Assembly (NCBI RefSeq): GCF_003334305.1
Contig: NZ_QOWS01000004.1
Source: Escherichia coli
GTDB taxonomy: Bacteria; Pseudomonadota; Gammaproteobacteria; Enterobacterales; Enterobacteriaceae
Direction: 5' to 3' (one strand)
Length of the DNA: 64,000 bases
The notes beneath the pieces are model-generated. The model did not search any database and had not been told where the DNA came from. It saw nothing but the letters and a program-made list of their open reading frames with translations. Below are positions 36,409-56,240 of this stretch, piece by piece; the stretch's first letter is position 1; the number at the start of each line of letters is the position of its first letter. The translations under genes and the position numbers were made by a program.

Positions 36409-36419
36409 GAGATAGTCCT

Positions 36420-36956: not shown

Positions 36957-38515
36957 TCAGCAGCCTCCTGCTTTTTCTCCCTGGCGGCTTTAGCACTTTG
37001 CTTCTCCGCCGATGTTGTGAAATATTTCTTGCGCGCGGTCATAACGCGTTTCAAATCAACAGGCTCATATGGATTGGTGAATACACGCTCGTCAAAATCC
37101 TGACGCGCGAATAACCAAATTTCCTTTTGCCATTTGCCGAGTAATTCGTCCGCATCCTGACCTTCTTCAATTTGGCGCACTAACCTCAGGAAGCGATGCT
37201 GAGTTTTGTTCCAGAAGTCGATATCCACAAAACTGAAATCACCCCGTGCACCTTTTGGATCGGAGAACCACGCTTCTTTCAATGCACTTCGTAACAGACT
37301 TAGAATCCGTGAAGCCGTTTGCGCAGCCAGACGCAGTTTCGGTATCTGGCCTTCTTTTTTCTTGAGCAGCAGCGGGAAATGGTGTTCGTACCAACAGCGC
37401 GCTTTCATGTTGTCGAAATCATAGCCAAATCCCCACAGGCCTACTTTTGCCTGTTTCAGACTGCTGGCATTAAAGAGTTTCACCACCAGCGCGGGAAGTT
37501 CCGTATTGTTTTCTGATTTACCCGTTTCGATAAGGCCTAACCAGTCGCGCCAGATTAAACCGCCCGGTTGTGGTTTGACCGAGTAAAACTCGCCCCCCTC
37601 TTTAAGTGGTATACGGTAAGGCGTTAAGGGATGCTGCCACATGGCATAATTCGCACCGTAATTTTTGGTCGTCATCAGGCTCAGGAGCGCGTCGCTCTGT
37701 TCACCGCAAATATCGCAGTTGCCGACTGTCGTGGTATTAAAATCAATACGAATACGGCGCGGCATTCCCCAGTAAGCCTGGAGTTTATTGACCTGATCAT
37801 GGGTTACCACCGCACCGGCCAGTTCGCTGGTTCGCGTCGGGCCAAGCCAGGGGAAAACCAGATCGTCAAATTTTTTGGGTAGCGGTAAGTCGGCTTCATC
37901 CTGCGGCATCACATTGGGCCACAGTTTGCGCCACAAGGGCGTTTGTTGATTGCCTTGATATTCCTGTAATTCAATCAGAGTGGTCATCGGCCCACCGCCG
38001 CGCAAACCGGTGCGATAGCCTTTGCCGCCTGATGGCGCATTTAACTGTAGGGAGAACAGAGCTAACGCGGAACAATGAGGGCATACGTGTTCAGTCACGC
38101 CACGCTTAATAAAGTGGTCTTTATTAAACTTCGTTGTTTGAGCGCCGGGAATCTCAGGCAGTAGCGAAGCGACCTGAACTTTATCTCCCTTGAGCGCCTC
38201 GAAATCCTGCATAAATGAAGGGGAATCTGCCCCAAACTGGAAAGCGTGTTCTAAGGACAGCAATGCTTCCCGTAGCTTTTCAGCCTCCAGTCCGTCTTCC
38301 CAGATATCATCCCAACGACCGTGATTTTTGGGCGCGAAGCTGGTTTGTAGTAGCCCCAGCAAAAACTGCCAGGCCGCACCCTGGAGATCTGCCCGCGGCG
38401 CAGCGATATCGACAACATTTTCATCAGCCAGATCGACTGGTGCCAGCTTGCCTGTCGTTCCGTCTTTAAAACGAACAGGCAACCACGGGGTTGTCAGAAG
38501 TGAAAACGAGTTCAT
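36953..38515 (-). CDS. casA: Cascade large subunit CasA/Cse1
   Basis: Start chosen at MNSFSLLTTPWLPVR (520 aa), preceded by GAGAGG at 6-nt spacing; the track ORF extends to 38584 (543 aa). Confidence 0.85.
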   Translation of the reverse strand: MNSFSLLTTPWLPVRFKDGTTGKLAPVDLADENVVDIAAPRADLQGAAWQFLLGLLQTSFAPKNHGRWDDIWEDGLEAEKLREALLSLEHAFQFGADSPSFMQDFEALKGDKVQVASLLPEIPGAQTTKFNKDHFIKRGVTEHVCPHCSALALFSLQLNAPSGGKGYRTGLRGGGPMTTLIELQEYQGNQQTPLWRKLWPNVMPQDEADLPLPKKFDDLVFPWLGPTRTSELAGAVVTHDQVNKLQAYWGMPRRIRIDFNTTTVGNCDICGEQSDALLSLMTTKNYGANYAMWQHPLTPYRIPLKEGGEFYSVKPQPGGLIWRDWLGLIETGKSENNTELPALVVKLFNASSLKQAKVGLWGFGYDFDNMKARCWYEHHFPLLLKKKEGQIPKLRLAAQTASRILSLLRSALKEAWFSDPKGARGDFSFVDIDFWNKTQHRFLRLVRQIEEGQDADELLGKWQKEIWLFARQDFDERVFTNPYEPVDLKRVMTARKKYFTTSAEKQSAKAAREKKQEAAE

Positions 38516-38612
38516 ACGCATCCTCTCGTAAAAAAGACCATCCCAGGTCGGTTGTCCATCTTTCCATCCTTTTCGGTGTATCAACTATTCAGAGAGTCCT
38601 GTCGCAGACATC

Positions 38613-41312
38613 TCAACCAACCTTGCCAATCAATCCTTCCGTAGCCGAATACCCGCAACTTTCGTCATCGTTGACTAAAATCACGTTTGCCATCTCCGGA
38701 TCTTGTCGCTGTTCAATGCACCACAGCCTGAACGCCTCTCCCTCCAGTAAAGAAAACTCATCCCGATGTTTTTTCCACCAGCTTCGGCGCACTCTGACAA
38801 CGCTCATTTCCCATGCGTGAGCACCGGTGGCATAAGGCTTCACCACACCGTCAATACAGGTAGCCAGCCACAGGGAAACAGACTCCTCAGCCAGACGTGT
38901 CGACAGTTTTTCCGGGAGGTAATCGTTGATATTGGCGGCATAGCCGGGCCTGAAGTTCAGCACAAACTTTTTAGCCATTGCGCGATCGCAGTAATATTTG
39001 CCCACTTGCTCCTGCTCGCTGCGGGCAAATCCTTCCGGCATTACCACGTCCTCACCGTAGACGGATTCAATAAGAAGCCGGGCTGCGTATGGCATCTGAA
39101 TAGCACCTTGCTCACGCAGCACACGCTGCGTCAGCCAGATTCGCCCATGATCGGGATAGACAAATGCACTGTTACGCATGGCACTGCCAAACCATTCGTC
39201 GCCAGGAGAGTCGTCCCAGACGGGAGCCAGAATCAGCAATTCAGGGGGGGAACGCTCGTCCTTTCCGTCACGCTTTAACTGACCATTAATATCGCGGATA
39301 TGCCGCTGTAATCGTCCTGCTCGCTGAATCAGCAAATCAACAGGGGCCAGGTCGGAGATCATTTCGTCCAGGTCAATATCCACGCTTTGCTCAATTACTT
39401 GTGTACAAACAATGACTTGCGACGCTCTCTGTAAACTACAATATTTACCAAAGCGTGCCAGTGTCTCCGTTTCAATTCGCTGGCGATCGCTAAAAGCAAA
39501 GCGGCTATGAAAAAGTGAAAGGCTGGAAGCAGGAATGACGCCGCGGGCAAGCAGCTGACGATGAACCTTAATAGCGTCATCGACAGAATTCCGGATCCAG
39601 GCGATGCATTTCCCCTGACTTACCGCCGATTCGATACGCGCAATACACTCTTGTTCACTATGAAGCCAACCCACGCTGACGCTACGCTCAACGTCTTTGC
39701 GCGTCGCTACCCGGTGTGAGTTCACATCGGATTTCGTGACATGCGTCAGCCAGGGGTAATCATCCTTTTCCAGGAACGGAGCTTCTTGCAGGCCCTCTGT
39801 ACCCCGCGCAAAGGCAGCGACGAGTTTGTCGCGCTGCTGTTGAGATAACGTGGCAGAAAGCAAAATAACGCTGTTTCCGCCACGCGCCTGCCGCTCGATC
39901 AACCCTTCAAGAATGCACGACATGTAAGCGTCACAGGCGTGGATCTCATCAGCCAGCAGGATTTTGTTACTCAGCCCCAGAAGCCGCAGATTATTATGTT
40001 TGAACGGCATCACCGCCATCATCGCCTGATCCAGCGTGCCGACGCCAATTTCAGCCAGCAACGCCTTCTTGTTACTGTCGGCAAACCAGGCCGCACATCC
40101 CTGACTGAACGTTTGTTCATCCGGTTCTTCTGACCCGACTAAATCACCAGACCAGAGTGATTCATTAAAGCGGTCCATTAATGTGCGGGCACTATGTGCC
40201 AGCACCAGGCTGGGGCGGGATTCTGGCGAATAGAAAGCAAGCCAGGTTTTGACCAGCCGATCGTACATGGCATTGGCCGTTGCCATTGTTGGCAGACCAA
40301 AAAACAGCCCCTGAGCTTTCCCCGCAGCTATCAACCTGTGCGCCAGGATAAGCGCCGCTTCTGTTTTACCTGCGCCAGTCACATCTTCCAGAATAAATAA
40401 CTGCGGTCCTTGCTGGCTGATATCCAGATCCAGCACCTTTTGCTGTAACGGTGTCGGATTCTCAATAAAAGGAAACAGCGTATTAATTCCGTTGAAAGGC
40501 GCGACTTTTGCTTTTAGAGGAAAGACGGTTAAGGCGTTTTGAGCCTGAATTAAAGTTTTCTGCCAGTAACCTTTAATATCCATTGGGTGTGCGACGCGTG
40601 GAAAAAATCGCGTTGACGAACCCGTCCAGTCTGCGAGCACGACGGTTGCAGAGATATACCAGGAAAGGTGTTTTATAAGTTCAATGCCCTCATCATCATC
40701 CCAGAATGCGGGGATCTCTATGAGCGGAAACAGTGGTTTGATTTCAAGGAGAAAATCTCGTGCTGCAGCTTTGTCTTCAGGCAGAAAATTATCCAATTCA
40801 TCCATACGATCAGGGGGCCGACCATGATGCCCTGTCGTCACGGGCATCCACATTTCTATCACTCGCCTAAGTTTGCGCGGAGAGAGCGAAGATGAAGGAA
40901 GTAACTCCTGACATTCACTTAAATAATGATTCCACAACCAGTAGCCCAGCGTTGAATGAGAGATTTTTTCGTAATTTTTTCTGGCACCTTCCTGAATCTT
41001 GAGTTCAGGGGGCAGGTAAAGTTGTTGAAAAGAGCGGGCAAATTTTCCAATATCGTGCCAGCACAGCAACCAGGCGAAAAATTGAGCCGCCTGTTCCTTG
41101 TCAGAAATCCCTAATTGACGAAAATAATCAGCCAGCCCGAAGCAATTTCTTTTAACCATTAAATAGCCCATCGCGGCTACATCCAGCGAATGCCAGCAAA
41201 GAAGGTGATAGTCGTCGCCCCCGTCTTTCTCGCCGCGTCGGGTTTTTCCCCAGAAATCAAAAAAAGTCACAATATTTTTATCCTTCAGTAAACTTAAAGG
41301 ATATTTACGCAT
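38613..41312 (-). CDS. cas3: CRISPR-associated helicase-nuclease Cas3 (HD nuclease + DEAD/DEAH helicase)
   Basis: 899 aa; N-terminal HD motif (HDIGKF) and helicase motif GAGKTEAAL. Confidence 0.93.
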   Translation of the reverse strand: MRKYPLSLLKDKNIVTFFDFWGKTRRGEKDGGDDYHLLCWHSLDVAAMGYLMVKRNCFGLADYFRQLGISDKEQAAQFFAWLLCWHDIGKFARSFQQLYLPPELKIQEGARKNYEKISHSTLGYWLWNHYLSECQELLPSSSLSPRKLRRVIEMWMPVTTGHHGRPPDRMDELDNFLPEDKAAARDFLLEIKPLFPLIEIPAFWDDDEGIELIKHLSWYISATVVLADWTGSSTRFFPRVAHPMDIKGYWQKTLIQAQNALTVFPLKAKVAPFNGINTLFPFIENPTPLQQKVLDLDISQQGPQLFILEDVTGAGKTEAALILAHRLIAAGKAQGLFFGLPTMATANAMYDRLVKTWLAFYSPESRPSLVLAHSARTLMDRFNESLWSGDLVGSEEPDEQTFSQGCAAWFADSNKKALLAEIGVGTLDQAMMAVMPFKHNNLRLLGLSNKILLADEIHACDAYMSCILEGLIERQARGGNSVILLSATLSQQQRDKLVAAFARGTEGLQEAPFLEKDDYPWLTHVTKSDVNSHRVATRKDVERSVSVGWLHSEQECIARIESAVSQGKCIAWIRNSVDDAIKVHRQLLARGVIPASSLSLFHSRFAFSDRQRIETETLARFGKYCSLQRASQVIVCTQVIEQSVDIDLDEMISDLAPVDLLIQRAGRLQRHIRDINGQLKRDGKDERSPPELLILAPVWDDSPGDEWFGSAMRNSAFVYPDHGRIWLTQRVLREQGAIQMPYAARLLIESVYGEDVVMPEGFARSEQEQVGKYYCDRAMAKKFVLNFRPGYAANINDYLPEKLSTRLAEESVSLWLATCIDGVVKPYATGAHAWEMSVVRVRRSWWKKHRDEFSLLEGEAFRLWCIEQRQDPEMANVILVNDDESCGYSATEGLIGKVG

Positions 41313-41507
41313 ATATTAAAAATTATCTGTGATATATATCATTCAATAAAATATTTACATTATGAATAATCAAATAATTTTCATCCGTAATATATATGAA
41401 TAATAAACATAGGCATAATATTCACATAAACAATATAAATTAAAAAAGGGTGCAGGAGACCAAACCATCACAATTCAGTACGCGGGGTTTTACCCCCGCG
41501 TGGTGGC

Positions 41508-41660
41508 TACTTCTTCGATTCGTAAGCGAGAACTGCCTTAAACTCCATACCACGTTCTCTGATACTCAACTCACACAACGAGTCGCCTACCATCAGCGTG
41601 AATCCCAGTACTGTAAAACACAGCACTATGATTGCCACAAGGGCATATTTTGTCAGCATG
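41508..41660 (-). CDS. hokX: Hok-family type I toxin (50 aa), not present in the ORF track
   Basis: Manual translation of the minus strand from ATG 41660-41658, preceded by GGGAGG: [50 protein letters not shown], stop TAG. Hok/Gef signature; the hokX symbol is from memory of the K-12 cysH-cas3 gap. Confidence 0.85.
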
Positions 41661-41923
41661 TCTTGCCTCCCTGCAAAGAAGAGACTAACATTCGAATTGT
41701 TTGGGTTCGAACGTAAGCCTCAGGTTGATAGAAATATCGCCTGGGGCTTTTGTCCATCTGGAACCTCGCGAATGCTTAACGCCAGACAGCCTCAAGCACC
41801 CGACGCCATTCTATACCTGATAATTCTTCCAGCGGCGTTCACGTTTAAAATCAGGAATACTGCTCGCAAAATAAAAACGCCCCCATCATTTCTGACAGAG
41901 GCGTTTAATTTATCCGGCAATAT

Positions 41924-44444: not shown

Positions 44445-46243
44445 TAGTAGACATCTCGCTGATAACGGCGCTCTACGCGCAGCTCACTTAAAAATTCATC
44501 CGCCGCTTCGGTGTCCATGCCACCAAATTCGGCAATCACTTCCAGAAGTGCCTGCTCAACGTCTTTCGCCATGCGATTAGCGTCACCGCAGACATAAATA
44601 TGGGCACCGTCATTGATCCAGCGCCACAGCTCCGCGCCCTGTTCGCGCAGTTTGTCTTGTACGTAAACTTTTTCTTTTTGGTCGCGCGACCAGGCGAGAT
44701 CGATCCGCGTCAGCACACCCTCTTTGACGTAGCGCTGCCACTCCACCTGGTAGAGGAAATCTTCCGTAAAGTGCGGGTTGCCAAAGAACAGCCAGTTTTT
44801 ACCCGGTGCTTCGTCGGCAGCACGTTGCTGCATAAAGGCGCGGAACGGCGCGATGCCGGTGCCTGGGCCAATCATAATCACCGGGGTTTCCGGGTTAGCG
44901 GGCAGGCGGAAGTTATCGTTATGTTCGATAAATACGCGGAGTTCGCCCTCTTCTTCCACGCGGTCCGCGAGGAAGCTGGAGGCACCACCGGCACGGGCGC
45001 GGCCTTCCACGTCGTAACGCACCACACCAACGGTGACGTGTACTTCGTTCTCGACTTCCGCCTGCGAGGAGGCGATGGAATACAGACGCGGCGTCAGCGG
45101 GCGCAGCAGATTAATTAGCGCTTCGGCATCAAGCTGTGCCGGGGAGAAACGCACCATGTCAACAATCGGCGTCGTCGCGGCGTAATGCTGTAACTTCGCT
45201 TTATCGCCCACCAGCGGCAGCAGTGTTTCACTGCGGGTAAGCGTGGCGTAATTCTCAACAATGTTGGCGGTGTTGACGGTCAGTTCGAAGTGCCACTGTA
45301 GCGCTTCGTTCAGAGGCAACGTTTTGCCCTCGACGGTGACAGGTTCATCGCCTGTCAGCCACAGCAGTTCGACAAGTTCTTTCACCAGTGCCGGATCGTT
45401 CTGATACCAGACGCCCAGCGCGTCACCCGGCTGGTAACGCAGGCCCGAGTCACCTAAGTCAATTTCGATATGGCGAACGTCTTTTTCAGAGTTACGCCCG
45501 GTAATTTTCTGGTTAACAGAGAGGCTAGCCACCAGTGGCGCGTCTTTGCTGTACGGGCTGGTGTGGATTTCATTTACCGCGCCAGTAGCGACGGATTGCG
45601 AAGGTGCCGCGACAGGCGCACGCGATTTAAGCGCATCAACCACGCGGGCGCGCCACTCGCTGGCAGCAGCCTGGTATTCAACATCGGCATCGACACGGTC
45701 GAGCAGGCGTTCACCGCCCAGTTCCGCCAGCTTGCTGTCGAAATCTTTCCCGGACTGGCAGAAAAATTCATAAGAGCTATCGCCGAGGCTAAACACGGCA
45801 AACGCGGTGTTTTCCAGCTTTGGCGCTTTTTTGGAGAACAGGAACTTATGCAGCGCGACGGCTTCTTCCGGCGGTTCCCCTTCCCCTTGCGTTGACGTCA
45901 CCACGATAAGCAGTTTTTCGCTGGCGATTTGTTTGAATTTATAGTCGCCCGCGTTCACCAGCTTAACGTTCAGTTTTGCCGTCAATAAATCATCGCGTAA
46001 TGCTTCAGCAACCCGGCGCGCATTGCCGGTTTGCGAAGCAGAGATAATAGTTATACCCGGCATTTCTGCGGCTGGCGCTGGCGTCGCTGCAAGCGCAGCA
46101 GGCTGCTGATTGAGCACGCCCCAGAAATAGCCAGAAACCCAGGCAAGCTGGGTGGGAGTTAAATCGGTCGTGGCCGCCTGAAGGCGTGCCAGTTGCTCCG
46201 GGTTCAACGGAAGCAACGCGGAAGGTGGGACCTGTGTCGTCAT
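44444..46243 (-). CDS. cysJ: Sulfite reductase flavoprotein alpha subunit
   Basis: 599 aa; flavodoxin-like and FAD/NADPH-binding domains. Confidence 0.96.
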
Positions 46244-46558
46244 GCGTCGTTATGTTCCAGTAAGCAAAGCTGTTTCTGCGCCCTGTCAGCGCCCATAAAA
46301 CAGAAGAGAAGGTAAGGTTAACGGGGCAAATGGTGTGGATTAAAGACGGGATAGCGATAACTAATAACCAAATCGACTAACCTGTTTTAGCAATAGTCTT
46401 TAACAACAAAATAGATTAACCAACCCAATGAAAAACAAATGAATTTAGCCAATCATTAAGATAAATCAGCGATTTTGCGCAACAAAGTCGTTTTAGATAA
46501 TGCGAAAAAACAGCCTTTCCGGTACTCTACGGCGGTTTTATCGTCCTGTAGAGAAATT

Positions 46559-46924
46559 ATGATGTCCACCACGTTATTTAAAGATTTCACCTTCGAAGCC
46601 GCTCACCGCTTACCACACGTCCCGGAAGGGCATAAATGTGGTCGCCTGCACGGGCATTCCTTTATGGTGCGACTGGAAATTACCGGGGAAGTCGATCCGC
46701 ATACGGGCTGGATTATCGATTTCGCTGAACTAAAAGCGGCGTTTAAACCAACCTACGAGCGCCTCGATCACCATTATCTCAATGATATTCCAGGTCTGGA
46801 AAACCCAACCAGCGAGGTTTTAGCAAAATGGATTTGGGATCAGGTTAAACCCGTTGTGCCGCTGTTAAGTGCGGTGATGGTAAAAGAAACCTGTACCGCA
46901 GGTTGTATCTATCGCGGCGAATGA
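46559..46924 (+). CDS. queD: 6-carboxy-5,6,7,8-tetrahydropterin synthase QueD
   Basis: Start chosen at [18 protein letters not shown] (121 aa) inside the 149-aa track ORF. Confidence 0.9.
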
Positions 46925-47001
46925 TAAGAGTGTGTCGGCGGTCAATTTCCCTTAAGTAACGCTATGTTAGGGTGTTGTGTTCTGGATATCTGGGGCATGA
47001 C

Positions 47002-48273
47002 ATGGAAGACGACTGCGACATTATTATTATTGGTGCCGGTATTGCAGGCACCGCTTGCGCGTTACGCTGCGCACGAGCGGGTTTATCCGTTTTGTTACTG
47101 GAACGCGCTGAAATCCCCGGCAGCAAAAATCTTTCCGGCGGGCGGTTATATACCCATGCACTCGCGGAACTCCTCCCGCAATTTCATCTGACCGCGCCTC
47201 TTGAACGACGCATCACTCACGAAAGCCTTTCCCTGTTAACGCCCGATGGCGTAACGACGTTTTCCAGCTTACAGCCCGGCGGTGAATCCTGGAGTGTATT
47301 ACGTGCACGGTTCGATCCGTGGCTGGTTGCCGAAGCCGAAAAAGAAGGTGTCGAATGCATCCCCGGAGCGACGGTGGATGCACTGTATGAAGAAAACGGC
47401 AGGGTGTGTGGTGTCATTTGTGGTGACGATATTCTCCGCGCCCGTTATGTGGTGCTGGCAGAAGGTGCCAACAGCGTCCTGGCTGAACGTCACGGATTAG
47501 TGACTCGTCCTGCTGGCGAAGCGATGGCGTTGGGGATCAAAGAAGTGCTGTCGCTGGAAACATCCGCTATTGAAGAACGTTTTCATCTGGAGAATAACGA
47601 AGGCGCAGCGTTGCTGTTCAGCGGCAGGATCTGTGATGACTTACCCGGCGGCGCATTTCTTTATACTAATCAACAAACGCTCTCGTTAGGGATTGTTTGC
47701 CCGCTCTCTTCCCTTACGCAAAGTCGTGTTCCGGCAAGCGAGCTGCTGACTCGCTTTAAAGCGCATCCGGCAGTGCGCCCGCTTATCAAAAACACGGAAT
47801 CACTGGAGTATGGTGCGCATCTGGTGCCAGAAGGTGGCTTGCACAGTATGCCGGTGCAATACGCCGGTAACGGCTGGCTGCTGGTGGGCGATGCGTTGCG
47901 CAGTTGCGTCAATACCGGAATTTCCGTGCGCGGCATGGATATGGCGCTGACTGGCGCGCAGGCGGCGGCACAAACGCTGATAAGCGCCTGCCAGCACCGC
48001 GAGCCGCAAAATCTGTTTGCGCTTTATCATCACAACGTAGAGCGCAGCCTGCTATGGGATGTTCTACAACGTTATCAGCATGTTCCGGCGCTTTTGCAAC
48101 GCCCTGGCTGGTATCGGGCGTGGCCTGCGTTAATGCAGGATATTTCCCGCGATTTATGGGATCAGGGTGATAAACCTGTTCCACCGCTGCGCCAGTTATT
48201 CTGGCGTCATTTACGTCGTCATGGCCTGTGGCATCTGGCGGGCGATGTTATCAGGAGTCTGCGATGTCTGTAG
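47002..48273 (+). CDS. ygcN: FixC-like FAD-dependent oxidoreductase (ETF:quinone oxidoreductase family)
   Basis: Start chosen at MEDDCDIIIIGAGIAGTA (423 aa), giving the FAD-binding GxGxxG motif at the N-terminus. Confidence 0.85.
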   Translation: MEDDCDIIIIGAGIAGTACALRCARAGLSVLLLERAEIPGSKNLSGGRLYTHALAELLPQFHLTAPLERRITHESLSLLTPDGVTTFSSLQPGGESWSVLRARFDPWLVAEAEKEGVECIPGATVDALYEENGRVCGVICGDDILRARYVVLAEGANSVLAERHGLVTRPAGEAMALGIKEVLSLETSAIEERFHLENNEGAALLFSGRICDDLPGGAFLYTNQQTLSLGIVCPLSSLTQSRVPASELLTRFKAHPAVRPLIKNTESLEYGAHLVPEGGLHSMPVQYAGNGWLLVGDALRSCVNTGISVRGMDMALTGAQAAAQTLISACQHREPQNLFALYHHNVERSLLWDVLQRYQHVPALLQRPGWYRAWPALMQDISRDLWDQGDKPVPPLRQLFWRHLRRHGLWHLAGDVIRSLRCL

Positions 48274-48524
48274 CCCATAATCTCTGGCGCGTTGCTGATG
48301 CGCCGCACATTGTTCCGGCTGACTCCGTTGAGCGTCAGATGGTACAACGGTTGATTAACGCCTGTCCGGCAGGTCTTTTTTCGCTCACACCGGAAGGTGA
48401 CTTACGCGTTGATTATCACGGCTGCCTGGAGTGTGGCACCTGCCGTTTGCTGTGCGACGAATCCACACTACAACAGTGGCGCTATCCGCCTTCCGGATTC
48501 GGCATCACCTACCGCTTTGGATAA
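48264..48524 (+). CDS. ygcO: FixX-like ferredoxin
   Basis: Start chosen at MSVAHNLWRV (86 aa); C-terminal CxxCxxC motif. Confidence 0.8.
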   Translation: MSVAHNLWRVADAPHIVPADSVERQMVQRLINACPAGLFSLTPEGDLRVDYHGCLECGTCRLLCDESTLQQWRYPPSGFGITYRFG

Positions 48525-48540
48525 ATAATAAGGATAATTT

Positions 48541-49116
48541 ATGCCCCTCTTACACCTGCTCCGCCAGAATCCGGTGATTGCTGCCGTTAAAGATAATGCC
48601 AGCCTGCAACTGGCAATCGACTCTGAATGCCAGTTTATTTCCGTGTTGTACGGCAATATCTGCACCATCAGTAATATCGTTAAAAAGATTAAGAACGCCG
48701 GGAAATATGCTTTTATTCATGTTGATTTGCTGGAAGGCGCGTCAAATAAAGAAGTCGTGATTCAGTTTTTGAAACTGGTGACCGAGGCGGACGGCATTAT
48801 CAGTACCAAAGCCTCAATGTTGAAAGCGGCAAGAGCGGAAGGTTTTTTCTGTATTCATCGCCTGTTTATTGTTGATTCAATTTCGTTTCACAACATTGAT
48901 AAGCAAGTTGCGCAATCGAATCCGGATTGTATTGAGATCCTGCCAGGCTGTATGCCCAAAGTGCTGGGCTGGGTGACAGAGAAAATCCGCCAACCGCTGA
49001 TTGCCGGTGGGCTGGTGTGCGATGAAGAAGATGCGCGTAATGCGATTAACGCGGGTGTCGTGGCGCTTTCCACCACGAATACCGGGGTCTGGACGTTAGC
49101 GAAAAAATTACTTTGA
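48541..49116 (+). CDS. ygcP: GlpP-like glycerol-3-phosphate-responsive antiterminator family protein
   Basis: 191 aa. Confidence 0.8.
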   Translation: MPLLHLLRQNPVIAAVKDNASLQLAIDSECQFISVLYGNICTISNIVKKIKNAGKYAFIHVDLLEGASNKEVVIQFLKLVTEADGIISTKASMLKAARAEGFFCIHRLFIVDSISFHNIDKQVAQSNPDCIEILPGCMPKVLGWVTEKIRQPLIAGGLVCDEEDARNAINAGVVALSTTNTGVWTLAKKLL

Positions 49117-49151
49117 CGGGATAATCGTAACCAATTGAATTTGGTTTGATT

Positions 49152-49220
49152 TGTAGGCCGCACGCCACATCCGACATTCAGCGCCTGATGCGACGCTTGA
49201 CGCGTCTTATCAGGCCTACA
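49152..49220. repeat. REP/BIME-like cluster between convergent ygcP and ygcQ
   Basis: tgtaggccgcacgccacatccg... followed by gcctgatgcgacgcttgacgcgtcttatcaggcctaca. Confidence 0.7.
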
Positions 49221-49263
49221 AGTCCCCAGGCCAGAACCGTAGGCAGGATCATCCGGCAACACG

Positions 49264-50124
49264 TTATTGGCAATCTGCGTGAATGTTTGTCACCAGTGCC
49301 TCCAGCACCACTTTCCAGTCATCAACCACGCCAACATCTGCCTGTGAAAATACCGCAGCGCTGGCGTCATGATTAATCGCCACCACAAACTTGCTATTGC
49401 GTACGCCCGCCATTAACGCTGCTGCGCCAGAAGCGCCAACAACAATACACACCTCAGGTGCCAGCAGATGTCCGGAAATACCAATCACTTTTTCAGCATC
49501 AACGCCACCGTTCATCACTCGCGCCCGACTGTAGCCCACTTCGGCTCCCAGCTTTTCTGCCAGCATAGCGATTTCCTGGTTATCTGCCTCTCCGCCCTGC
49601 CCCACCACCAGCACCCGTCTGGCCTCAGCTAATGGGTCGCGAGTAACATTTTTCAGATCCTCTGTGCTAACCAGCCAGTCGGGAAGCGCACCCGGGACAA
49701 TGTTCAGTTGTTGCATTCCAGAGGGCAACGTGGCGTTTTTCGCTGCTCCCGCCTGACGCGCCAGGGAAAGGCATAGCGGGCGTTTTTCTGTTTGCAGCGT
49801 CGCCGTTAGCGCATTTCCCCAGTGGGATTTGCGCACGCTTACGGTTGGAATATCTAACGAAGTCACCTGGCAGATGCTTGCACCATGTAAACGCCAGGCC
49901 AGCCGGGTCGACAGTTCATCGCCAAACGTTCCCGGCGGAAAGAGAACAACGTCCGCAGGCGTTCGCTGCCACTGTTCCACCAACGCATCCAGCACCTGTT
50001 CCGCCACTACAGGCTGAGGTTCAATCTGCCAGTGCGCCAGGGTACAACCGCTGAAATCCTGCGCCGCCAGCCAGCTTGCTATTGCGGCATTCTCCTGATT
50101 TATTGTCACAATTGCGATATTCAT
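49264..50124 (-). CDS. ygcQ: Electron transfer flavoprotein alpha subunit (FixB-like)
   Basis: Start chosen at MNIAIVTINQ (286 aa) inside the 297-aa track ORF. Confidence 0.85.
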   Translation of the reverse strand: MNIAIVTINQENAAIASWLAAQDFSGCTLAHWQIEPQPVVAEQVLDALVEQWQRTPADVVLFPPGTFGDELSTRLAWRLHGASICQVTSLDIPTVSVRKSHWGNALTATLQTEKRPLCLSLARQAGAAKNATLPSGMQQLNIVPGALPDWLVSTEDLKNVTRDPLAEARRVLVVGQGGEADNQEIAMLAEKLGAEVGYSRARVMNGGVDAEKVIGISGHLLAPEVCIVVGASGAAALMAGVRNSKFVVAINHDASAAVFSQADVGVVDDWKVVLEALVTNIHADCQ

Positions 50125-50900
50125 GGCTGCATCCTTTGGCGTAAATAGTCCTGCCATAGCTTTTGAGCTTTTTCTGCTACCGTTTGCCCATCAATCAGCG
50201 TCGCTCCGCGTCGTTGCTCTGCTCTTGCCAGTTGCAGACACTGCATCGCTGGCATTTCGGCAGCAACAGTTTTACGGATAATTTCTGCTTTCCCCGCAGC
50301 CATTCGCTGGCGCATTCCCGGTACTGGCAAGGCCACTTCACCGCACTGACGCACGGCAATCACCGCAGGCAAGCGAACCCGGCAACAACGCAAACCATGT
50401 TCAGTACGCTGTTCGAGGGTGATAAACAGCGCGTCGAGAGTGAAACGCTCCACCTGGGTGAAGCAGGGCCAGCCCAGCATTTCCGCCAGCAAAAATGGCG
50501 TTTGCCCATTCTGCCCTTCGCTGCTTTGGCAGCCGGTAATTATCAGATCCAGCGGATTCTGATGCTGCCATTCGGCAATATGGCGAGCGACAAATTCCGG
50601 CGCAAAGCGCAGATCTGCCGCCGTCTCCAGCAATACAGCTTCCTCAAACCCAAGAGCCATGAGATAGCGCAGCCAGTGCAATGCCCGTTCATCCCCCATG
50701 CTCAACGCGGTTAAAGACATCGGCGTACCGTTTTTTCTCTGCGCCAACAGCAGCGCGGCAGCGGCCTGTTCATCAGCACCGAGTAAACTTCGCAGTAGCG
50801 AAATATCCGGTCCGCTTTTACCCTGAGCCGCCGCCTGCCACTCTTTTTCCGCCAGCATTCCGGCATCCGGTTCGGCTTTAAACGCTAACAGAATGTTCAT
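50121..50900 (-). CDS. ygcR: Electron transfer flavoprotein beta subunit (FixA-like)
   Basis: Start chosen at MNILLAFKAEPDAG (259 aa); ATGA overlap with ygcQ. Confidence 0.85.
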   Translation of the reverse strand: MNILLAFKAEPDAGMLAEKEWQAAAQGKSGPDISLLRSLLGADEQAAAALLLAQRKNGTPMSLTALSMGDERALHWLRYLMALGFEEAVLLETAADLRFAPEFVARHIAEWQHQNPLDLIITGCQSSEGQNGQTPFLLAEMLGWPCFTQVERFTLDALFITLEQRTEHGLRCCRVRLPAVIAVRQCGEVALPVPGMRQRMAAGKAEIIRKTVAAEMPAMQCLQLARAEQRRGATLIDGQTVAEKAQKLWQDYLRQRMQP

Positions 50901-52215
50901 TCGCACCTCCTACATTTCCCGCCGCCACCAGCGGGAGGGCTTTAGTTTCTGGTGCCCATAGCCAGGTCACAACAAAACCAACCAACAACACTGTCGCCAG
51001 GAGCAATAAGGTGACTTGCATTCCCCACTGCGCCAGCACCCACGGCAGCAGGCCAGTACTTACCGCCGCGCCAAGTCGACTCATGGCGGTGGCAAAACCG
51101 ACGCCCAGCGAGCGAATGTCAGTAGGAAAACTTTCCGCAGGCAAAATGCCCACCAGATTACTGACTGCCGAAATGGTGGTGCTGAAGAGAACAAAAAGCA
51201 GCAGCGTTAATGAACTGCCGGAAGGCAAACAGGCCATGACTACCAGCGTTGCCGCCAGCAGCAAAAAACTTCCCAGCAAAAATTTGCGATGTGCCAGCAG
51301 GTGCGTCAGAACTAATCCCAGCAGCGCGCCCACAATTAACAACGCATTAAGCATCAGGCTGGCAGTCAGCGCATCTTCCAGACCAATAGTCTGGGCGATA
51401 GTTGGCAGCCAGGTATAAATCACAAACCATGGGATTACGAGGCAGACAAAGAAGACGCTGTTAAACGCCGTTCGCCGCCAGTAACGCGAAGAGAACAAGG
51501 TTTTGATGTGTTTATGGGTCGCCGTTACCACTTCATCGCCCAGTAAAACATGGGGACCAAAATAGCGATGCACGATAGCGTGAGCTTCTGCAAAACGCCC
51601 CTGGCGCAGTAGCCAGCGTGGTGATTCTGGCGTTCCCCAGCGTAATAACGTAATCAACAACGCGGGCAGAGCTGCCGATGCCAGTAGCCAGCGCCAGGCC
51701 TCCGGGTTTTCGGAAATAAAGTGATGTCCGGCAATACTTGCCAGCACATAGCCTACGGTCCACACCACGCTGAATGCGCCCAGCAAAATACCGCGATGGC
51801 GGCGCGGGGAAAATTCAGCCAGCAAGGTGTGACCTACTGAATAATCGCCTCCCAGACCAATGCCAATCAAAATGCGCAGTCCAATAAGATGCTCTGGCGT
51901 GGTGGCAAAAAATTGTAAAAACGAAGCAAGCGTAATCAGCAAAAAGCTGAAGGTGAAGATTTTTTGCCGACCAATATGGTCGGAGATCCACCCAAGAACC
52001 AGGCTGCCAAGGAACAAACCAAGGAGCGCCGAGCCGCCGATCATTCCCGCCATAAACGGCGTCAGTTGCATGGCGGGCGTAAGCTGAATAATGGCGTAAC
52101 CAATGACGCCGAGAACATAACCGTCGGTCAGGTGTGCGCCGAAAGTGAGCGCAGCAATGCGGCAGTGAAAACGGTTAAGCGGTAAATCATCCATTCGCAC
52201 CGGTGAAGTGTTCAT
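50878..52215 (-). CDS. ygcS: MFS transporter (sugar/metabolite:H+ symporter type)
   Basis: Start chosen at MNTSPVRMDDLPLNRF (445 aa); 12-TM-like hydrophobicity. Confidence 0.85.
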   Translation of the reverse strand: MNTSPVRMDDLPLNRFHCRIAALTFGAHLTDGYVLGVIGYAIIQLTPAMQLTPFMAGMIGGSALLGLFLGSLVLGWISDHIGRQKIFTFSFLLITLASFLQFFATTPEHLIGLRILIGIGLGGDYSVGHTLLAEFSPRRHRGILLGAFSVVWTVGYVLASIAGHHFISENPEAWRWLLASAALPALLITLLRWGTPESPRWLLRQGRFAEAHAIVHRYFGPHVLLGDEVVTATHKHIKTLFSSRYWRRTAFNSVFFVCLVIPWFVIYTWLPTIAQTIGLEDALTASLMLNALLIVGALLGLVLTHLLAHRKFLLGSFLLLAATLVVMACLPSGSSLTLLLFVLFSTTISAVSNLVGILPAESFPTDIRSLGVGFATAMSRLGAAVSTGLLPWVLAQWGMQVTLLLLATVLLVGFVVTWLWAPETKALPLVAAGNVGGANEHSVSV

Positions 52216-52308
52216 CTTTACCCCTTCATTGTCCGGTAATAAGAACGGCTTCTCGCCTGAGAAGCCGAAAAGGCAACGCCCCGTCATCGCGGAACGCTGC
52301 CTGACACA

Positions 52309-53763
52309 TTATTTTTCAATCGGATAGATAGTACCCGTATTCATAATGCCATTAGGATCGAACTGCTTTTTCAGCCCTTCCAGCAACGCCCACGCGCTGC
52401 CGTGTTCCAGTTTGCTCCAGTGAACGCGATGTTTACCGATACCGTGGTGGTGCACCATCGAACCGCCGAGGCGAATGGTTTCTTCACAGATGATCTTGTT
52501 GAGCGGATTGTGGTACTTGTCGATTTCCTCTTCCGGCTTACAGTCAACGACGTTGTAATCGTAGACGAAGTACATGTTGGTGCCGTTCTGATAGCTATGA
52601 GAGGAATGACCGCCCAGCATGGTGATGTCGTCGGCGTGCGGGAACTCAGTACGAATACGGTTAATAACGCTTTCGTAGATTTCGTGGATGCAGCTCCAGC
52701 AGCCGGACACTTCAGTGGTAAAGCCCATGTTGCCGGTTTTGAGGATCTGCACACGTTCGGCAGCCACTTTATCCGGTCCCCAGTTCAGGTTGTTAAACCA
52801 GGTTTCGATCAGCTTGCTGTCCACGCGCTGGCATTGCGGGTAGCGGGCAACGATTTCCGCAATCCCTTCGCCCGTCGCCTTCGCAATGCGAGGGTTACCT
52901 TCAGCCATAAAGATCAGCACGCATTTTCCGTCTGCAAAATGGGTGAAGTGTTGGGTGCCATCTTCAGCGTCATACAAACGAGCGATCGACGGACGATACC
53001 CTTCCACCATGACTTCACGCAGGATGTTGAAGCCGGTTTTCATGTCTTCCAGGATATAGCCGTAGAAGAGGTTGTTTTCCGGGGTGAATTTAAAGATTTT
53101 CACTGTTACTTCAGTGATATAGCAAAGTGCACCTTCGTTACCGATGATGATGTGGCGAATGTCCGGGCCAGCCGCGCGGCGTGGCACGTTTTTAATGCGT
53201 GTGACGGTGCCATCAGCCAATACTGCTTCCAGACCAACGACCATATCTTCGATTGCGCCGTAGAGTGTGGAGAACTGCCCGATACTGCGGGTTGCTACCA
53301 GGCCGCCCATCTGAGCCAGCGGCTTTGACTGCGGAGAATGCCCCGTGGTGTAACCTTTTTCACGCAACGCATTTTCCAGCACCTCCAGCGGAACGCCACA
53401 TTGCGCCGTCGCCTGCATATTCTCAATATCAATATTAATGATTTGATTCATGGCGGAGCCGTCGAGCACCACCGAGTTTTCCACAACGGTTTCCAGCCCA
53501 CCTTCAGTGGCGGAAGCGCCGGTACGCGGCACACCGTTAATTTTGTGCGCATTCATAAAATTCAGCACACGGGAGACTTGTTCTGTGGAACCGAGTTTTA
53601 CGACCGCTGCCGGAATCGGCAAAGTATAAATACCATGAATATCCGGAAATTTACGAAAACGGTCAATACTGTTCTTCTTTAATACTGTTTCATCGGTAAT
53701 TACGCGATCTGCACCAACAATTTCCTTTAGCTGGTCGACAATCGCTGCGCGAGATAAAGACAT
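52309..53763 (-). CDS. ygcU: FAD-linked oxidoreductase (GlcD / alkyl-DHAP-synthase-like)
   Basis: 484 aa, intact. Confidence 0.88.
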   Translation of the reverse strand: MSLSRAAIVDQLKEIVGADRVITDETVLKKNSIDRFRKFPDIHGIYTLPIPAAVVKLGSTEQVSRVLNFMNAHKINGVPRTGASATEGGLETVVENSVVLDGSAMNQIINIDIENMQATAQCGVPLEVLENALREKGYTTGHSPQSKPLAQMGGLVATRSIGQFSTLYGAIEDMVVGLEAVLADGTVTRIKNVPRRAAGPDIRHIIIGNEGALCYITEVTVKIFKFTPENNLFYGYILEDMKTGFNILREVMVEGYRPSIARLYDAEDGTQHFTHFADGKCVLIFMAEGNPRIAKATGEGIAEIVARYPQCQRVDSKLIETWFNNLNWGPDKVAAERVQILKTGNMGFTTEVSGCWSCIHEIYESVINRIRTEFPHADDITMLGGHSSHSYQNGTNMYFVYDYNVVDCKPEEEIDKYHNPLNKIICEETIRLGGSMVHHHGIGKHRVHWSKLEHGSAWALLEGLKKQFDPNGIMNTGTIYPIEK

Positions 53764-53832
53764 AGTAATTCCTTCCTGATAATAAAAATGGAATAATCAT
53801 TAATAAGAGAAAACAGAAACCACCGTTATGGA

Positions 53833-54618
53833 TTAGCGCACTAAATAACCACCATCGACCACTAATAAATGCCCATTGACATAATTTGAAGCCGGACTTG
53901 CGAGGAATACAGCTGCGCCCATTAAATCCTGAGTATCGCCCCAACGGTTTGCCGGAATATGATCAAGAACGCGCTGATTGGTTTCTGGATTACTGCGTGT
54001 CGCCAGCGTAATATCTGTTGCATAATAGCCAGGGGCGATACCATTTACCTGAATATTATATTGACCTAGCTCATCACAATAAGCTTTGGTGAACCCGGCA
54101 AGAGCATGTTTAGTGGCAGAATATGCAGGTGACCATTGTCCACCTAAGTAAGAGAACAATGAACAGATATTAATAATTTTGCCGCTTTTCTGCGGGATCA
54201 TAATTTTTGCAGCTTCATAGCTTAACTCGAATGCGGCGGTCAGGTTCACATCAATCATCGGATCCCAGTCGGCACGACCGAAGTCCAGCACCTTATTCAG
54301 CTTACAAATACCGGCATTGTTTACCAGAATATCAACTGTACCGAAACGCTCACAGCAAGCAGCGATAATCTTCTGCGGCGCGCCTTCTGCGGTGATATCC
54401 ACCTGCATGAAGTCCACCTCAACACCCTGTTTTTCAATCATTTCCTTTGTTTCGCCGTTATCTTTGACGAAACTAGGAATAAAGATATTTGCGCCAGCTT
54501 TGGCCAACGCCATGGCAAATGCCTGGCCTAAACCGCTATTCCCACCGGTAACAATTGCGGTTTTACCTTTCAGTGAGAAAAAATCCATTGAGAACGCATT
54601 GAGAGATTCGATTGACAT
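53833..54618 (-). CDS. ygcW: Short-chain dehydrogenase/reductase
   Basis: Start chosen at MSIESLNAFSMDFFSLKGKTAIVTGGNSGLG (261 aa), giving the TGxxxGxG motif near the N-terminus. Confidence 0.85.
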   Translation of the reverse strand: MSIESLNAFSMDFFSLKGKTAIVTGGNSGLGQAFAMALAKAGANIFIPSFVKDNGETKEMIEKQGVEVDFMQVDITAEGAPQKIIAACCERFGTVDILVNNAGICKLNKVLDFGRADWDPMIDVNLTAAFELSYEAAKIMIPQKSGKIINICSLFSYLGGQWSPAYSATKHALAGFTKAYCDELGQYNIQVNGIAPGYYATDITLATRSNPETNQRVLDHIPANRWGDTQDLMGAAVFLASPASNYVNGHLLVVDGGYLVR

Positions 54619-54742
54619 AGTTAGCTCCAATTTCCGTAAGGCAAAAAAAAAGAAAGGTAACTTCCCCCGCGAGAGGGAAGTTACCTTTCTCATTATCTCT
54701 GGTAACTGGAGATAATTTTTAGCATAACGGCATAACTGCTAA

Positions 54743-54758
54743 TGTGATCGTAATCACA
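54743..54758. promoter_or_regulatory. Perfect consensus CRP-binding site in ygcW-yqcE divergent promoter region
   Basis: TGTGAtcgtaaTCACA, both half-sites exact with 6-bp spacer. Confidence 0.6.
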
Positions 54759-54936
54759 GTGTGATATTCGTATTGTCAAATAGTTTTAAAAAGCAGAAGC
54801 GTGATTACTCTCACACAACACCTCTGCTTTCCATGTTATTTCTTATTGCAATTACTAGAGACCTGAGAAAAGTAATCCACCTGAAAGGGCGGCTTACTTT
54901 TCTCTTTTTTTTGTCTATTACAAATGGGAATACGAT

Positions 54937-56214
54937 ATGCAACACAACTCATATCGCCGTTGGATAACCCTCGCGATAATTAGTTTTAGCGGCGGCGTTA
55001 GTTTCGACCTGGCTTATTTACGTTATATTTATCAAATTCCCATGGCGAAATTTATGGGATTCAGCAATACCGAGATAGGTTTAATAATGAGTACCTTTGG
55101 TATTGCGGCTATTATTCTTTATGCCCCCAGCGGCGTTATTGCCGATAAATTTTCACACCGCAAAATGATTACTTCCGCGATGATCATTACCGGATTACTG
55201 GGTCTGTTAATGGCAACGTATCCACCGCTGTGGGTAATGCTCTGTATTCAGGTCGCCTTTGCGATAACGACGATTTTAATGCTGTGGTCGGTGTCGATTA
55301 AAGCCGCCTCGTTGCTGGGCGATCATAGTGAGCAAGGGAAAATTATGGGCTGGATGGAAGGGCTGCGCGGCGTCGGTGTAATGTCGCTGGCGGTGTTTAC
55401 CATGTGGGTCTTTTCTCGCTTTGCACCGGATGACAGCGCCAGCCTGAAAACAGTCATTATCATCTACAGTGTGGTTTACATCTTGTTGGGGATTCTGTGC
55501 TGGTTTTTTGTTAGCGATAACAACAACCTGCGCAGTGCCAATAACGAAGAAAAACAGTCATTCCAGCTTAGCGACATCCTTGCCGTTTTGCGTATCAGCA
55601 CCACCTGGTATTGCAGCATGGTGATTTTTGGTGTCTTCACAATCTACGCCATTCTGAGTTACTCCACCAACTATCTGACCGAAATGTACGGCATGTCGCT
55701 GGTGGCAGCGAGCTACATGGGGATTGTGATCAACAAAATCTTCCGCGCGCTGTGCGGCCCACTTGGCGGCATTATCACCACCTACAGTAAAGTGAAATCC
55801 CCTACCCGCGTGATCCAAATCCTTTCCGTACTCGGCCTGCTGGCGTTAACTGCCCTGCTCGTCACGAACTCTAACCCGCAATCGGTCGCGATGGGGATTG
55901 GCCTGATTTTACTGCTGGGATTCACCTGTTACGCCTCACGCGGGCTGTACTGGGCCTGCCCTGGCGAAGCGAGAACACCGTCTTACATTATGGGCACCAC
56001 GGTAGGTATTTGTTCGGTGATTGGATTCCTGCCGGATGTCTTCGTTTACCCGATTATCGGCCACTGGCAAGACACCCTGCCCGCAGCAGAAGCCTACCGC
56101 AATATGTGGCTGATGGGAATGGCGGCGCTTGCCATGGTGATTGTCTTTACCTTTTTGCTGTTCCAAAAAATTCGTACTGCTGATAGCGCCCCCGCAATGG
56201 CTAGCAGCAAGTAA
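54937..56214 (+). CDS. yqcE: MFS transporter
   Basis: 425 aa, hydrophobic. Confidence 0.88.
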   Translation: MQHNSYRRWITLAIISFSGGVSFDLAYLRYIYQIPMAKFMGFSNTEIGLIMSTFGIAAIILYAPSGVIADKFSHRKMITSAMIITGLLGLLMATYPPLWVMLCIQVAFAITTILMLWSVSIKAASLLGDHSEQGKIMGWMEGLRGVGVMSLAVFTMWVFSRFAPDDSASLKTVIIIYSVVYILLGILCWFFVSDNNNLRSANNEEKQSFQLSDILAVLRISTTWYCSMVIFGVFTIYAILSYSTNYLTEMYGMSLVAASYMGIVINKIFRALCGPLGGIITTYSKVKSPTRVIQILSVLGLLALTALLVTNSNPQSVAMGIGLILLLGFTCYASRGLYWACPGEARTPSYIMGTTVGICSVIGFLPDVFVYPIIGHWQDTLPAAEAYRNMWLMGMAALAMVIVFTFLLFQKIRTADSAPAMASSK

Positions 56215-56240
56215 GCCAGGAAAATTACAGGAGAAAAATC

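Follow-up and report, generated by a model that had tools for sequence, protein, structure and literature searches.

What does an antiterminator of the GlpP family regulate in Escherichia coli, and where is its RNA target? The question is raised by ygcP, a 191-codon open reading frame running from ATG to TGA at exactly 48541-49116 (+) of a 64,000-nucleotide stretch of E. coli DNA (contig NZ_QOWS01000004.1; hereafter the window), in which the gene order is cysJIH, queD, ygcNOP, the minus-strand genes ygcQRSUW and then yqcE-ygcE. A preliminary description of the sequence took ygcP for a GlpP homologue embedded in an electron transfer flavoprotein (ETF) cluster and proposed that it controls a neighbouring operon by antitermination. 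The homology is borne out by the protein, which is 100% identical to RefSeq WP_001130266.1, annotated 'glycerol-3-phosphate responsive antiterminator'; the GlpP-family identity of ygcP is indeed already standard annotation. The new element is that two RNA targets can be named, that they are conserved across phyla and that they can be tied to existing transcript and CRP data. On this evidence we consider it likely that YgcP is a ligand-responsive RNA-binding antiterminator of the GlpP type which acts at the leaders of ygcW and yqcE and so switches on two nearby operons of sugar catabolism.

YgcP matches Pfam PF04309 (G3P_antiterm) over the entire length of the model (model positions 1-173 of 173, residues 12-184, E = 1.6e-62), and this is the only family that Pfam finds in it, with no CAT, PRD or classical RNA-binding domain; a search of NCBIfam gave no matching family model. 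Relatives with solved structures are GlpP from Listeria (3kts, E = 1e-27) and TM1436 from Thermotoga (1vkf, E = 8e-15). An AlphaFold2 model of YgcP (predicted local distance difference test 90.5, predicted template-modelling score 0.88) superposes in Foldseek on 3kts with a template-modelling (TM) score of 0.87-0.90 and a root mean square deviation of 1.6 Å, and on 1vkf with a TM score of 0.79-0.89, predicting a compact (beta/alpha) TIM barrel like that of these two proteins. The folds nearest to the model after the GlpP structures are those of GGGPS, NanE, TrpA, DERA and orotidine monophosphate decarboxylase, with TM scores of 0.6-0.7. Forty near-invariant positions are common to YgcP and to the GlpPs whose genes adjoin glycerol genes. 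At loose thresholds the ygc subfamily presents W144 and C160 as invariant residues of its own and H106 and S115 as near-invariant ones, and A96 also stands out, while no strictly group-specific residue separates ygc-type from glycerol-type GlpPs at high thresholds; W144, C160, H106 and S115 are only suggestive of a ligand other than glycerol-3-phosphate (G3P). Our literature searches found no publication on ygcP, no study of the function or regulation of ygcP, ygcU, ygcW or ygcE and no experimentally defined RNA-binding residues for GlpP.

A consensus scan of positions 46000-58500 for terminator-like sites gave one outstanding site, a 19-bp stem with a T run after it at 54691-54643 (-), between the RefSeq start of ygcW at 54618 and the divergent yqcE at 54937. 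The corresponding copy before yqcE was found first by eye and afterwards by R1, a covariance model derived from 68 leaders. Over the whole window R1 finds exactly two sites, the remaining matches being weak opposite-strand shadows, with no match before ygcN, ygcS or ygcP and none outside the ygcW-yqcE spacer. The ygcW leader element occupies 54643-54707 (-) from the 5' strand of a short helix, P1, through the U tract (R1 54635-54721 (-), 78.9 bits, E = 7e-13) and stands 25 nt ahead of the ATG of ygcW at 54618. The yqcE leader element, similarly delimited, occupies 54850-54912 (+) (R1 54836-54919 (+), 76.3 bits, E = 2e-12) and again lies 25 nt upstream of the start codon, the ATG at 54937; terminators so placed are just what GlpP-type control would call for. 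The preliminary description had named the region 54694-54936 upstream of yqcE as one of three candidate leaders, and this region does hold one of the two targets. Both leaders are identical in K-12.

The two near-symmetrical elements share a common design. P1 is the proposed antiterminator and protein-binding hairpin, and in the ygcW leader it spans 54679-54707 (-), with AGUUACC at 54707-54701 as its 5' strand, GGUAACU at 54685-54679 as its 3' strand, and the boxes AGAGA (54700-54696) and GAGAAA (54691-54686) in its loop; the intrinsic terminator follows at 54643-54691 (-), with its 19-bp stem at 54691-54650 and a T run reaching 54643. In the yqcE leader P1 spans 54851-54876 (+), where AUUACU (54851-54856) faces AGUAAU (54871-54876) around AGAGA (54857-54861) and GAGAAA (54865-54870), and the terminator at 54865-54912 (+) consists of a stem at 54865-54904 and T8 at 54905-54912. 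The loop of each P1 thus reads AGAGA-N3-4-GAGAAA, and the second GAGA box together with the P1 3' strand makes up the first 13 nt of the terminator 5' arm. Because AGUUAC(C/U) pairs with (G/A)GUAACU inside that arm, the resulting 6-7-bp P1 and the terminator are mutually exclusive. Searches of Rfam 15 with a 16-kb and a 361-nt sequence gave nothing relevant, the best matches being SurA (22.8 bits against a threshold of 100) and PyrG_leader (18.4 against 65).

The alternative structures differ greatly in stability. The terminator has a folding free energy of -34.2 kcal/mol before ygcW (z = -6.1) and -21.6 kcal/mol before yqcE (z = -4.2), as against -6.7 kcal/mol for P1 alone in the ygcW leader and a weak -1.4 kcal/mol in the yqcE leader. 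Since the terminators are far more stable than P1, termination would be the default state, and since P1 alone is weak a stabilizing factor would be required; we infer that YgcP is the factor which binds P1. That P1 is maintained as a helix is indicated by its covariation, for 93.8% of the cells of the alignment are paired and 42 cells carry a double change, compared with 8.8 in shuffles, none of 500 shuffles reaching the observed value. Controls in which the register of P1 was slid are 19-56% paired, and the covariation persists on a structure-agnostic MAFFT alignment. Pair 16-47 is G-C in 69 copies and A-U in 18; the change from G-C to A-U, which also distinguishes the yqcE P1 from the ygcW P1 in the window, occurs in enterobacterial yqcE copies and in Sporomusa, the change from U-A to C-G in enterobacterial ygcW copies, and that from A-U to G-C in Listeria, Streptomyces and one enterobacterial metagenome-assembled genome. 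For the terminator, 91.3% of the cells of the 17 modelled pairs are paired, 11 pairs show compensatory change and 90 double-change cells are found compared with 21 in shuffles. Sequence is more than 90% invariant both in the GAGA boxes and in the outer stem of the terminator, GAGAAAAG; the apical stem varies freely, with covariation. To judge by the alignment, an invariant 5' part beside a free apical stem fits the pattern expected of a sequence-specific protein contact.

The distribution of the leaders follows that of a particular set of genes. YgcP homologues of 52-90% identity, including close relatives in Clostridia, Vibrio and Bacilli, were taken from the protein database, and from their alignment 80 loci were fetched from GTDB species genomes and the E. 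coli proteins mapped onto them. Among the 57 loci with ygcW, which span Enterobacterales, Vibrio, Listeria, Halobacillus, Sporomusa, Enterococcus and Streptomyces, ygcU is present in all 57 and ygcE in 53, while ETF/Fix genes occur in only 30-32; the system is found in Proteobacteria, Firmicutes and Actinobacteria. The setting described earlier, next to FixABCX-like genes, holds in E. coli, where ygcP lies between ygcN/ygcO (FixC/FixX-like) on one side and the convergent ygcQ/ygcR (ETF alpha/beta-like) on the other, and where at least 80% of the 3.8-kb ygcN-to-ygcQ stretch is present in 5098 of 5426 complete genomes; as a conserved link it does not stand. The conserved partners of ygcP are ygcW, ygcU and ygcE rather than the ETF genes, and of these only ygcW and ygcU are universally linked to it.

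For the motif search, 75 related loci were used, all retrieved via a ygcP homologue. The leader motif occurs in all 52 of those with ygcW/ygcU and in none of the 23 without. R1 finds 89 copies in the set, of which 44 precede ygcW, 37 yqcE, 4 ygcU, 2 ygcE and 2 unmapped genes, at a median of 22-27 nt upstream of the start codon and in the orientation of the downstream gene. In essentially all related loci with ygcW the gene is preceded by the conserved leader AGTTACT-AGAG(A)-N4-GAGAAAAGTAACTTCC...GGAAGT..GCTTTTCTC-T8. The reverse test, a plain pattern search of metagenome contigs independent of YgcP, returned five contigs, four of which carry ygcP while the fifth ends where ygcP would lie. Plasmids reached through YgcU give one case of each kind: in a megaplasmid of Streptomyces clavuligerus ygcP and the motif occur together, and the Vibrio pelagius plasmid pATCC25916 (L088, 7294-11943) carries a module of short-chain dehydrogenase/reductase (SDR), FAD-oxidoreductase and FGGY-kinase genes (52-58% identity with YgcU and YgcW) yet has no ygcP and no motif. 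In place of ygcP the latter has a divergent RpiR-like gene (HTH_6, E = 3e-6; weak SIS match, E = 0.003), and it looks as though one regulator has been replaced by an unrelated one. For terminator-containing leaders before neighbouring operons the comparative support is strong, and published transcripts can be added to it.

Two such transcripts are already on record. Romero et al. (2014) reported two 'potential novel sRNAs' from the ygcW-yqcE spacer of K-12, ecr2774 (-, 73 nt) and ecr2775 (+, 63 nt), classed both as 'simple stem-loops, perhaps REP-like' (referring to repetitive extragenic palindromes), flagged ecr2775 with '##' in Table S5 and showed it in a northern-blot figure (PMC4681348); our literature search found no other paper naming either RNA. 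The 5' ends of the two are 139 nt apart, compared with 143 nt between the P1 5' strands, which places the start of each RNA about 2 nt before P1, and their 3' ends are 275 nt apart, compared with a hairpin-end spacing of 254 nt, so that each RNA finishes about 10 nt past the stem, at the end of the U tract. These end-to-end distances fit the leaders, so that the geometry matches regardless of any coordinate offset. The spacer is single-copy, being found at 5088 places in 5068 E. coli genomes, and is therefore not a REP-type repeat.

The same spacer carries a CRP site that is bound in published data and a second, predicted one. The sequence TGTGATCGTAATCACA at 54743-54758 is a TGTGA-N6-TCACA site of perfect palindromic symmetry, and its centre lies about 41 bp ahead of the putative start of the ygcW leader. 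Chromatin immunoprecipitation sequencing of CRP in enterotoxigenic E. coli gave a peak at ygcW/yqcE with the site TGTGATTACGATCACA, that is the 54743-54758 palindrome (PMC4287617), on which CRP footprints in vitro with a Kd of about 1.7 nM (PMC12871828). A second palindrome, CGTGATTACTCTCACA at 54800-54815, is a predicted CRP-like site centred about 41 bp upstream of the putative yqcE-leader start, and the top CRP predictions of PhyloScan include both ygcW and yqcE (PMC1794230). With starts deduced from the RNAs, both CRP sites would be centred near -41, the class II position. A promoter predicted from sequence in a study using systematic evolution of ligands by exponential enrichment (SELEX), TTGACA-16-TGTGAT, would place the -10 element inside the CRP site and conflicts with the RNA 5' ends of Romero et al., and was not adopted.

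In the mechanism we propose, two back-to-back promoters, one CRP-bound in published data and the other with a CRP-like site, would fire divergently, and each nascent RNA would begin about 2 nt before P1. In the absence of effector the terminator would form and polymerase would release an RNA of 63-73 nt, corresponding to ecr2774 and ecr2775. Effector-loaded YgcP would clamp P1 and the GAGA boxes and so withhold the first 13 nt of the terminator 5' arm, and sequestration of the arm would allow read-through into ygcW-ygcU(-ygcS-ygcR-ygcQ) and yqcE-ygcE. The first of these proposed operons, at 49264-54618 (-), encodes a KduD-like SDR (ygcW), a GlcD-like FAD oxidase (ygcU), a major facilitator superfamily (MFS) transporter (ygcS), ETF beta (ygcR) and ETF alpha (ygcQ), and the second, at 54937-57719 (+), an MFS transporter (yqcE) and an FGGY-family kinase (ygcE).

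The effector would probably be a phosphorylated product of the kinase YgcE, as suggested by the parallel of GlpK and its product G3P, by a barrel fold of the kind that binds phosphate and by the RpiR/SIS regulator of phosphosugar type that takes the place of YgcP in Vibrio pelagius. It is probably not G3P itself, the ligand associated with the family in the preliminary description, for which nothing in the analysis speaks: the controlled genes are not glp genes, and for that reason the product name 'glycerol-3-phosphate responsive' is probably a misnomer for the ygc subfamily. At 97.9 bits, where the cut-off is 590, YgcE does not qualify as GlpK, and no NCBIfam equivalog passes its cut-off with any of the proteins encoded beside ygcP. 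On balance, though less firmly than for YgcP and its two E. coli leaders, we also favour a broader reading in which YgcP-type proteins and the leader AGUUACU-AGAGA-N4-GAGAAAAGUAACU(terminator) would constitute a cross-phyla, sometimes plasmid-borne riboregulatory module responding to a phosphorylated intermediate, other than G3P, of an uncharacterised catabolic pathway, in which GlpP-family proteins would generally recognise the loop of a hairpin with two GAGA boxes, and in which ecr2774 and ecr2775 would be products of attenuation. The YgcP-leader module has no curated family in Rfam 15 and was not found in full-text literature searches.

Several considerations weigh against assigning YgcP this role. 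The literature search turned up nothing to show directly that YgcP binds RNA or acts on the ygc genes, and its fold, a phosphate-binding TIM barrel, is common to many enzymes. In E. coli ygcP lies 5.5 kb from both leaders in a separate transcription unit, and the R1 scan finds no leader before ygcP itself. YgcP and the motif are connected by correlation, which may in part mean only that both belong to a single mobile pathway module. YgcP itself served to retrieve the main set of loci, and the independent samples are small (5 contigs, 2 plasmids). The conversion of the published RNA coordinates to those of the window is uncertain by about 10-15 nt, and a sequence hidden Markov model of the ygc leaders does not detect the glpD leader of Bacillus subtilis, the likeness between them being one of layout and not of alignable homology. 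Finally, a genomic SELEX survey flags the spacer at 54619-54936 as H-NS-bound, and H-NS silencing of the spacer may dominate in vivo.

One could suppose that YgcP is instead a metabolic enzyme, or a protein of the pathway that binds a ligand such as a phospho-sugar, that the leaders are under another factor or none, and that the co-occurrence records a module moving together. The ribulose-phosphate-binding type of TIM barrel, with enzymes following directly after the GlpP structures in the fold comparison, the absence of a classical RNA-binding domain and the fact that ygcP is always encoded among enzymes would all agree with this. We nonetheless think it unlikely, since the founding member of the family is needed for read-through of a leader of like layout, P1 is too weak to beat the terminator unaided, and no other specific regulator gene is found in the E. 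coli ygc cluster or in minimal clusters such as those of Thalassobacillus and Halobacillus; moreover, the one cluster found without ygcP also lacks the leader and has an RpiR-like regulator instead.

The leaders themselves could be read in other ways. A mutually exclusive, covarying terminator and antiterminator in a 5' untranslated region (UTR) before catabolic genes is what a riboswitch would present, or an autonomous attenuator that senses a metabolite or the kinetics of transcription or translation independently of YgcP, yet the roughly 35 nt before the terminator hold a single 6-7-bp helix with a purine-rich loop and leave no room for a typical aptamer. Such autonomy appears more doubtful still than an enzymatic YgcP, for no Rfam family matches, the motif tracks a gene module that ygcP always accompanies, the loop resembles the purine repeats bound by HutP and TRAP, and the validated counterpart in B. 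subtilis is protein-dependent. Least probable of all, and very improbable in our view, is that ecr2774 and ecr2775 are free-standing trans-acting small RNAs or REP-like elements without a role in cis: discrete RNAs of 63-73 nt do accumulate and each is essentially one long hairpin, but they come from a single-copy spacer and not from a dispersed repeat, their counterparts in several phyla always stand a median of 22-27 nt before ygcW, yqcE, ygcU or ygcE in the same orientation, and the terminator arm has a pairing partner in the conserved sequence upstream of the hairpin. The RNAs may nevertheless act in trans as well as in cis. An antiterminator role for YgcP at the two leaders remains the reading we prefer.

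The assignment of the ygcW leader depends on where ygcW begins. With the RefSeq start at 54618 (261 amino acids) the KduD profile aligns from residue 5 and GGAG stands 7 nt before the ATG. A longer frame from an ATG at 54693, 75 nt earlier, would translate the terminator and was rejected in view of the KduD profile and of the in-frame stops that interrupt the would-be extension in 32 of 57 homologous upstream regions. The preliminary description overlooked the ygcW leader because it began ygcW at 54693, with the hairpin then inside the gene. A variant of the ygcW-yqcE spacer is seen in Limnobaculum eriocheiris (L027, 13868-13972), where the spacer measures 130 nt, the leaders are merged into a single palindromic hairpin between A9 and T9, and neither the two P1 5' strands nor the promoter region is left; from its sequence it looks like a recombination or deletion variant and should be uninducible.

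The other two leaders put forward earlier, upstream of ygcN (46925-47001) and ygcS (52216-52308), did not prove to be targets. The ygcN spacer gives no R1 match, and its conserved hairpin, which lacks a U tract, sequesters the Shine-Dalgarno sequence. This queD-ygcN hairpin, at about 46973-47002 (+), abuts the ygcN start codon and covaries between E. coli, Citrobacter, Enterobacter and Lelliottia-like sequences; it may serve to control translation of ygcNOP, and hence of ygcP itself. The ygcU-ygcS spacer likewise has no R1 match and no GAGA/P1 layout. The hairpin that it contains, 3' of ygcU at 52246-52267 (-), is an ordinary one of 9 bp, CGGCTTCTC-AGGC-GAGAAGCCG, with a T-rich tail; Enterobacterales keep a hairpin at this position, and in some of them, Limnobaculum being one, a T run makes it a clear terminator. 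The ygcU-ygcS hairpin probably acts as a commonplace attenuator or stabiliser within the operon. Placed at 52287, the RefSeq ygcS start puts this hairpin inside the gene, whereas ygcS homologues align only from residue 11-30; to judge by these alignments ygcS probably starts at the ATG at 52215, the RefSeq start being too early. Elsewhere in the locus, REP-type palindromic repeats lie at 49143-49216 (+) between the convergent ygcP and ygcQ, with a weak match to Rfam naRNA4 (34 bits against a gathering threshold of 59.5). The ygc cluster appears from the record of strain A7 to be flanked by a type I-E CRISPR-Cas operon with a Hok/Gef toxin gene (about 34400-41700) and by a CRISPR array (about 58360-58940), which correspond to the known iap-cas-cysH region of E. 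coli and are unrelated to the YgcP finding.

If the proposal is correct, E. coli would gain a second protein family, unrelated to BglG, that antiterminates at leader terminators on a metabolite signal. A y-gene labelled by homology only would become part of a testable circuit in which the two RNA targets measure about 65 nt, the promoters are known and CRP is a global input, and two orphan small RNAs of K-12 would be reinterpreted as terminated leader transcripts. Two gene starts are corrected, that of ygcW to 54618 and that of ygcS, where the RefSeq start is probably too early. The leaders would also offer a handle on the substrate of the ygc cluster (ygcW, ygcU, ygcE, the transporters and the ETF genes), since a leader-reporter would serve as a biosensor for the inducer. 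The general rule suggested for RNA recognition by GlpP-family proteins, a pair of GAGA boxes within a terminator-overlapping hairpin, could be of use for structural work and for synthetic-biology parts.

Leader antitermination in E. coli has its classic case in BglG. As with the role proposed for YgcP, BglG and the related SacY/LicT family, acting through ribonucleic antiterminator (RAT) elements, are sugar-responsive RNA-binding proteins which stabilise an antiterminator hairpin overlapping the leader terminator of a catabolic operon. The proteins, however, are unrelated: BglG, SacY and LicT consist of a CAT and two PRD domains, sense phosphorylation by the phosphotransferase system instead of a small-molecule ligand and bind a different RNA element, and membership of YgcP in this family is dismissed by the Pfam result, which gives PF04309 only. 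HutP and TRAP of B. subtilis bind repeated NAG triplets, short purine motifs, in a ligand-dependent manner, as ring oligomers that bind many repeats. The ygc leaders resemble their targets in presenting a short repeated purine signal and differ in that two boxes lie in one hairpin loop, and the protein fold differs as well. The regulator of the Vibrio pelagius plasmid is of the phosphosugar-responsive RpiR/MurR type (HTH_6 and SIS), whose members are repressors or activators that bind DNA and not RNA, and it is encoded divergently from the same SDR/FAD-oxidase/FGGY-kinase module; this single example with its weak SIS match suggests an equivalent regulatory role with an effector of the phosphosugar type.

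The closest parallel is GlpP of B. subtilis, which acts in dependence on G3P at the glpD, glpFK and glpTQ leaders. It shares with YgcP the PF04309 family, the predicted fold, an intrinsic terminator just before the first gene and the linkage of the regulator gene to its target operons, and in both systems a catabolite-control layer lies on top, formed by CcpA in Bacillus and by CRP for the ygc leaders. The targets, on the other hand, are different, since the ygc operons contain no glycerol genes: their products are an SDR, an FAD oxidase, MFS transporters and an FGGY kinase, joined in some lineages by ETF/Fix proteins. At the RNA level, the glpD 5' UTR, the only GlpP target validated by experiment, contains ...CGGUCC-U-GAGA-UGAG-GAGA-GACCAC... 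(PMC9604022, Table S4), and deletion of glpP abolishes expression from this leader (PMC9604022). On folding, GGUC pairs with GACC, and GAGAGACCAC... starts the 5' arm of a -40 kcal/mol terminator. As in the YgcP leaders, a short helix thus surrounds two GAGA boxes 4 nt apart and has its 3' strand inside the terminator arm, a layout which about 0.1% of shuffles reproduce; the ygc P1 sequence, AGUUACU...AGUAACU, is distinct from that of the glpD helix. Eighteen of the retrieved loci, from Lachnospiraceae, Blautia and Oscillospiraceae, have no ygc genes, and many of them carry hairpin-terminator leaders with GAGA-N2-4-GAGA directly before true glycerol genes (GlpK at 850 bits, GlpA/GlpO-like proteins, GlpQ and the MIP channel GlpF). 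Examples of these glycerol-type leaders, drawn from loci L061-L081, are found at 10615-10690 in L080, 1754-1830 in L081, 10620-10700 in L075 and 13476-13555 in L078; that of L081 precedes glpP itself, which suggests autoregulation of glpP there. The layout with two GAGA boxes, found before glycerol genes and ygc genes alike, looks like a property of the whole GlpP family.

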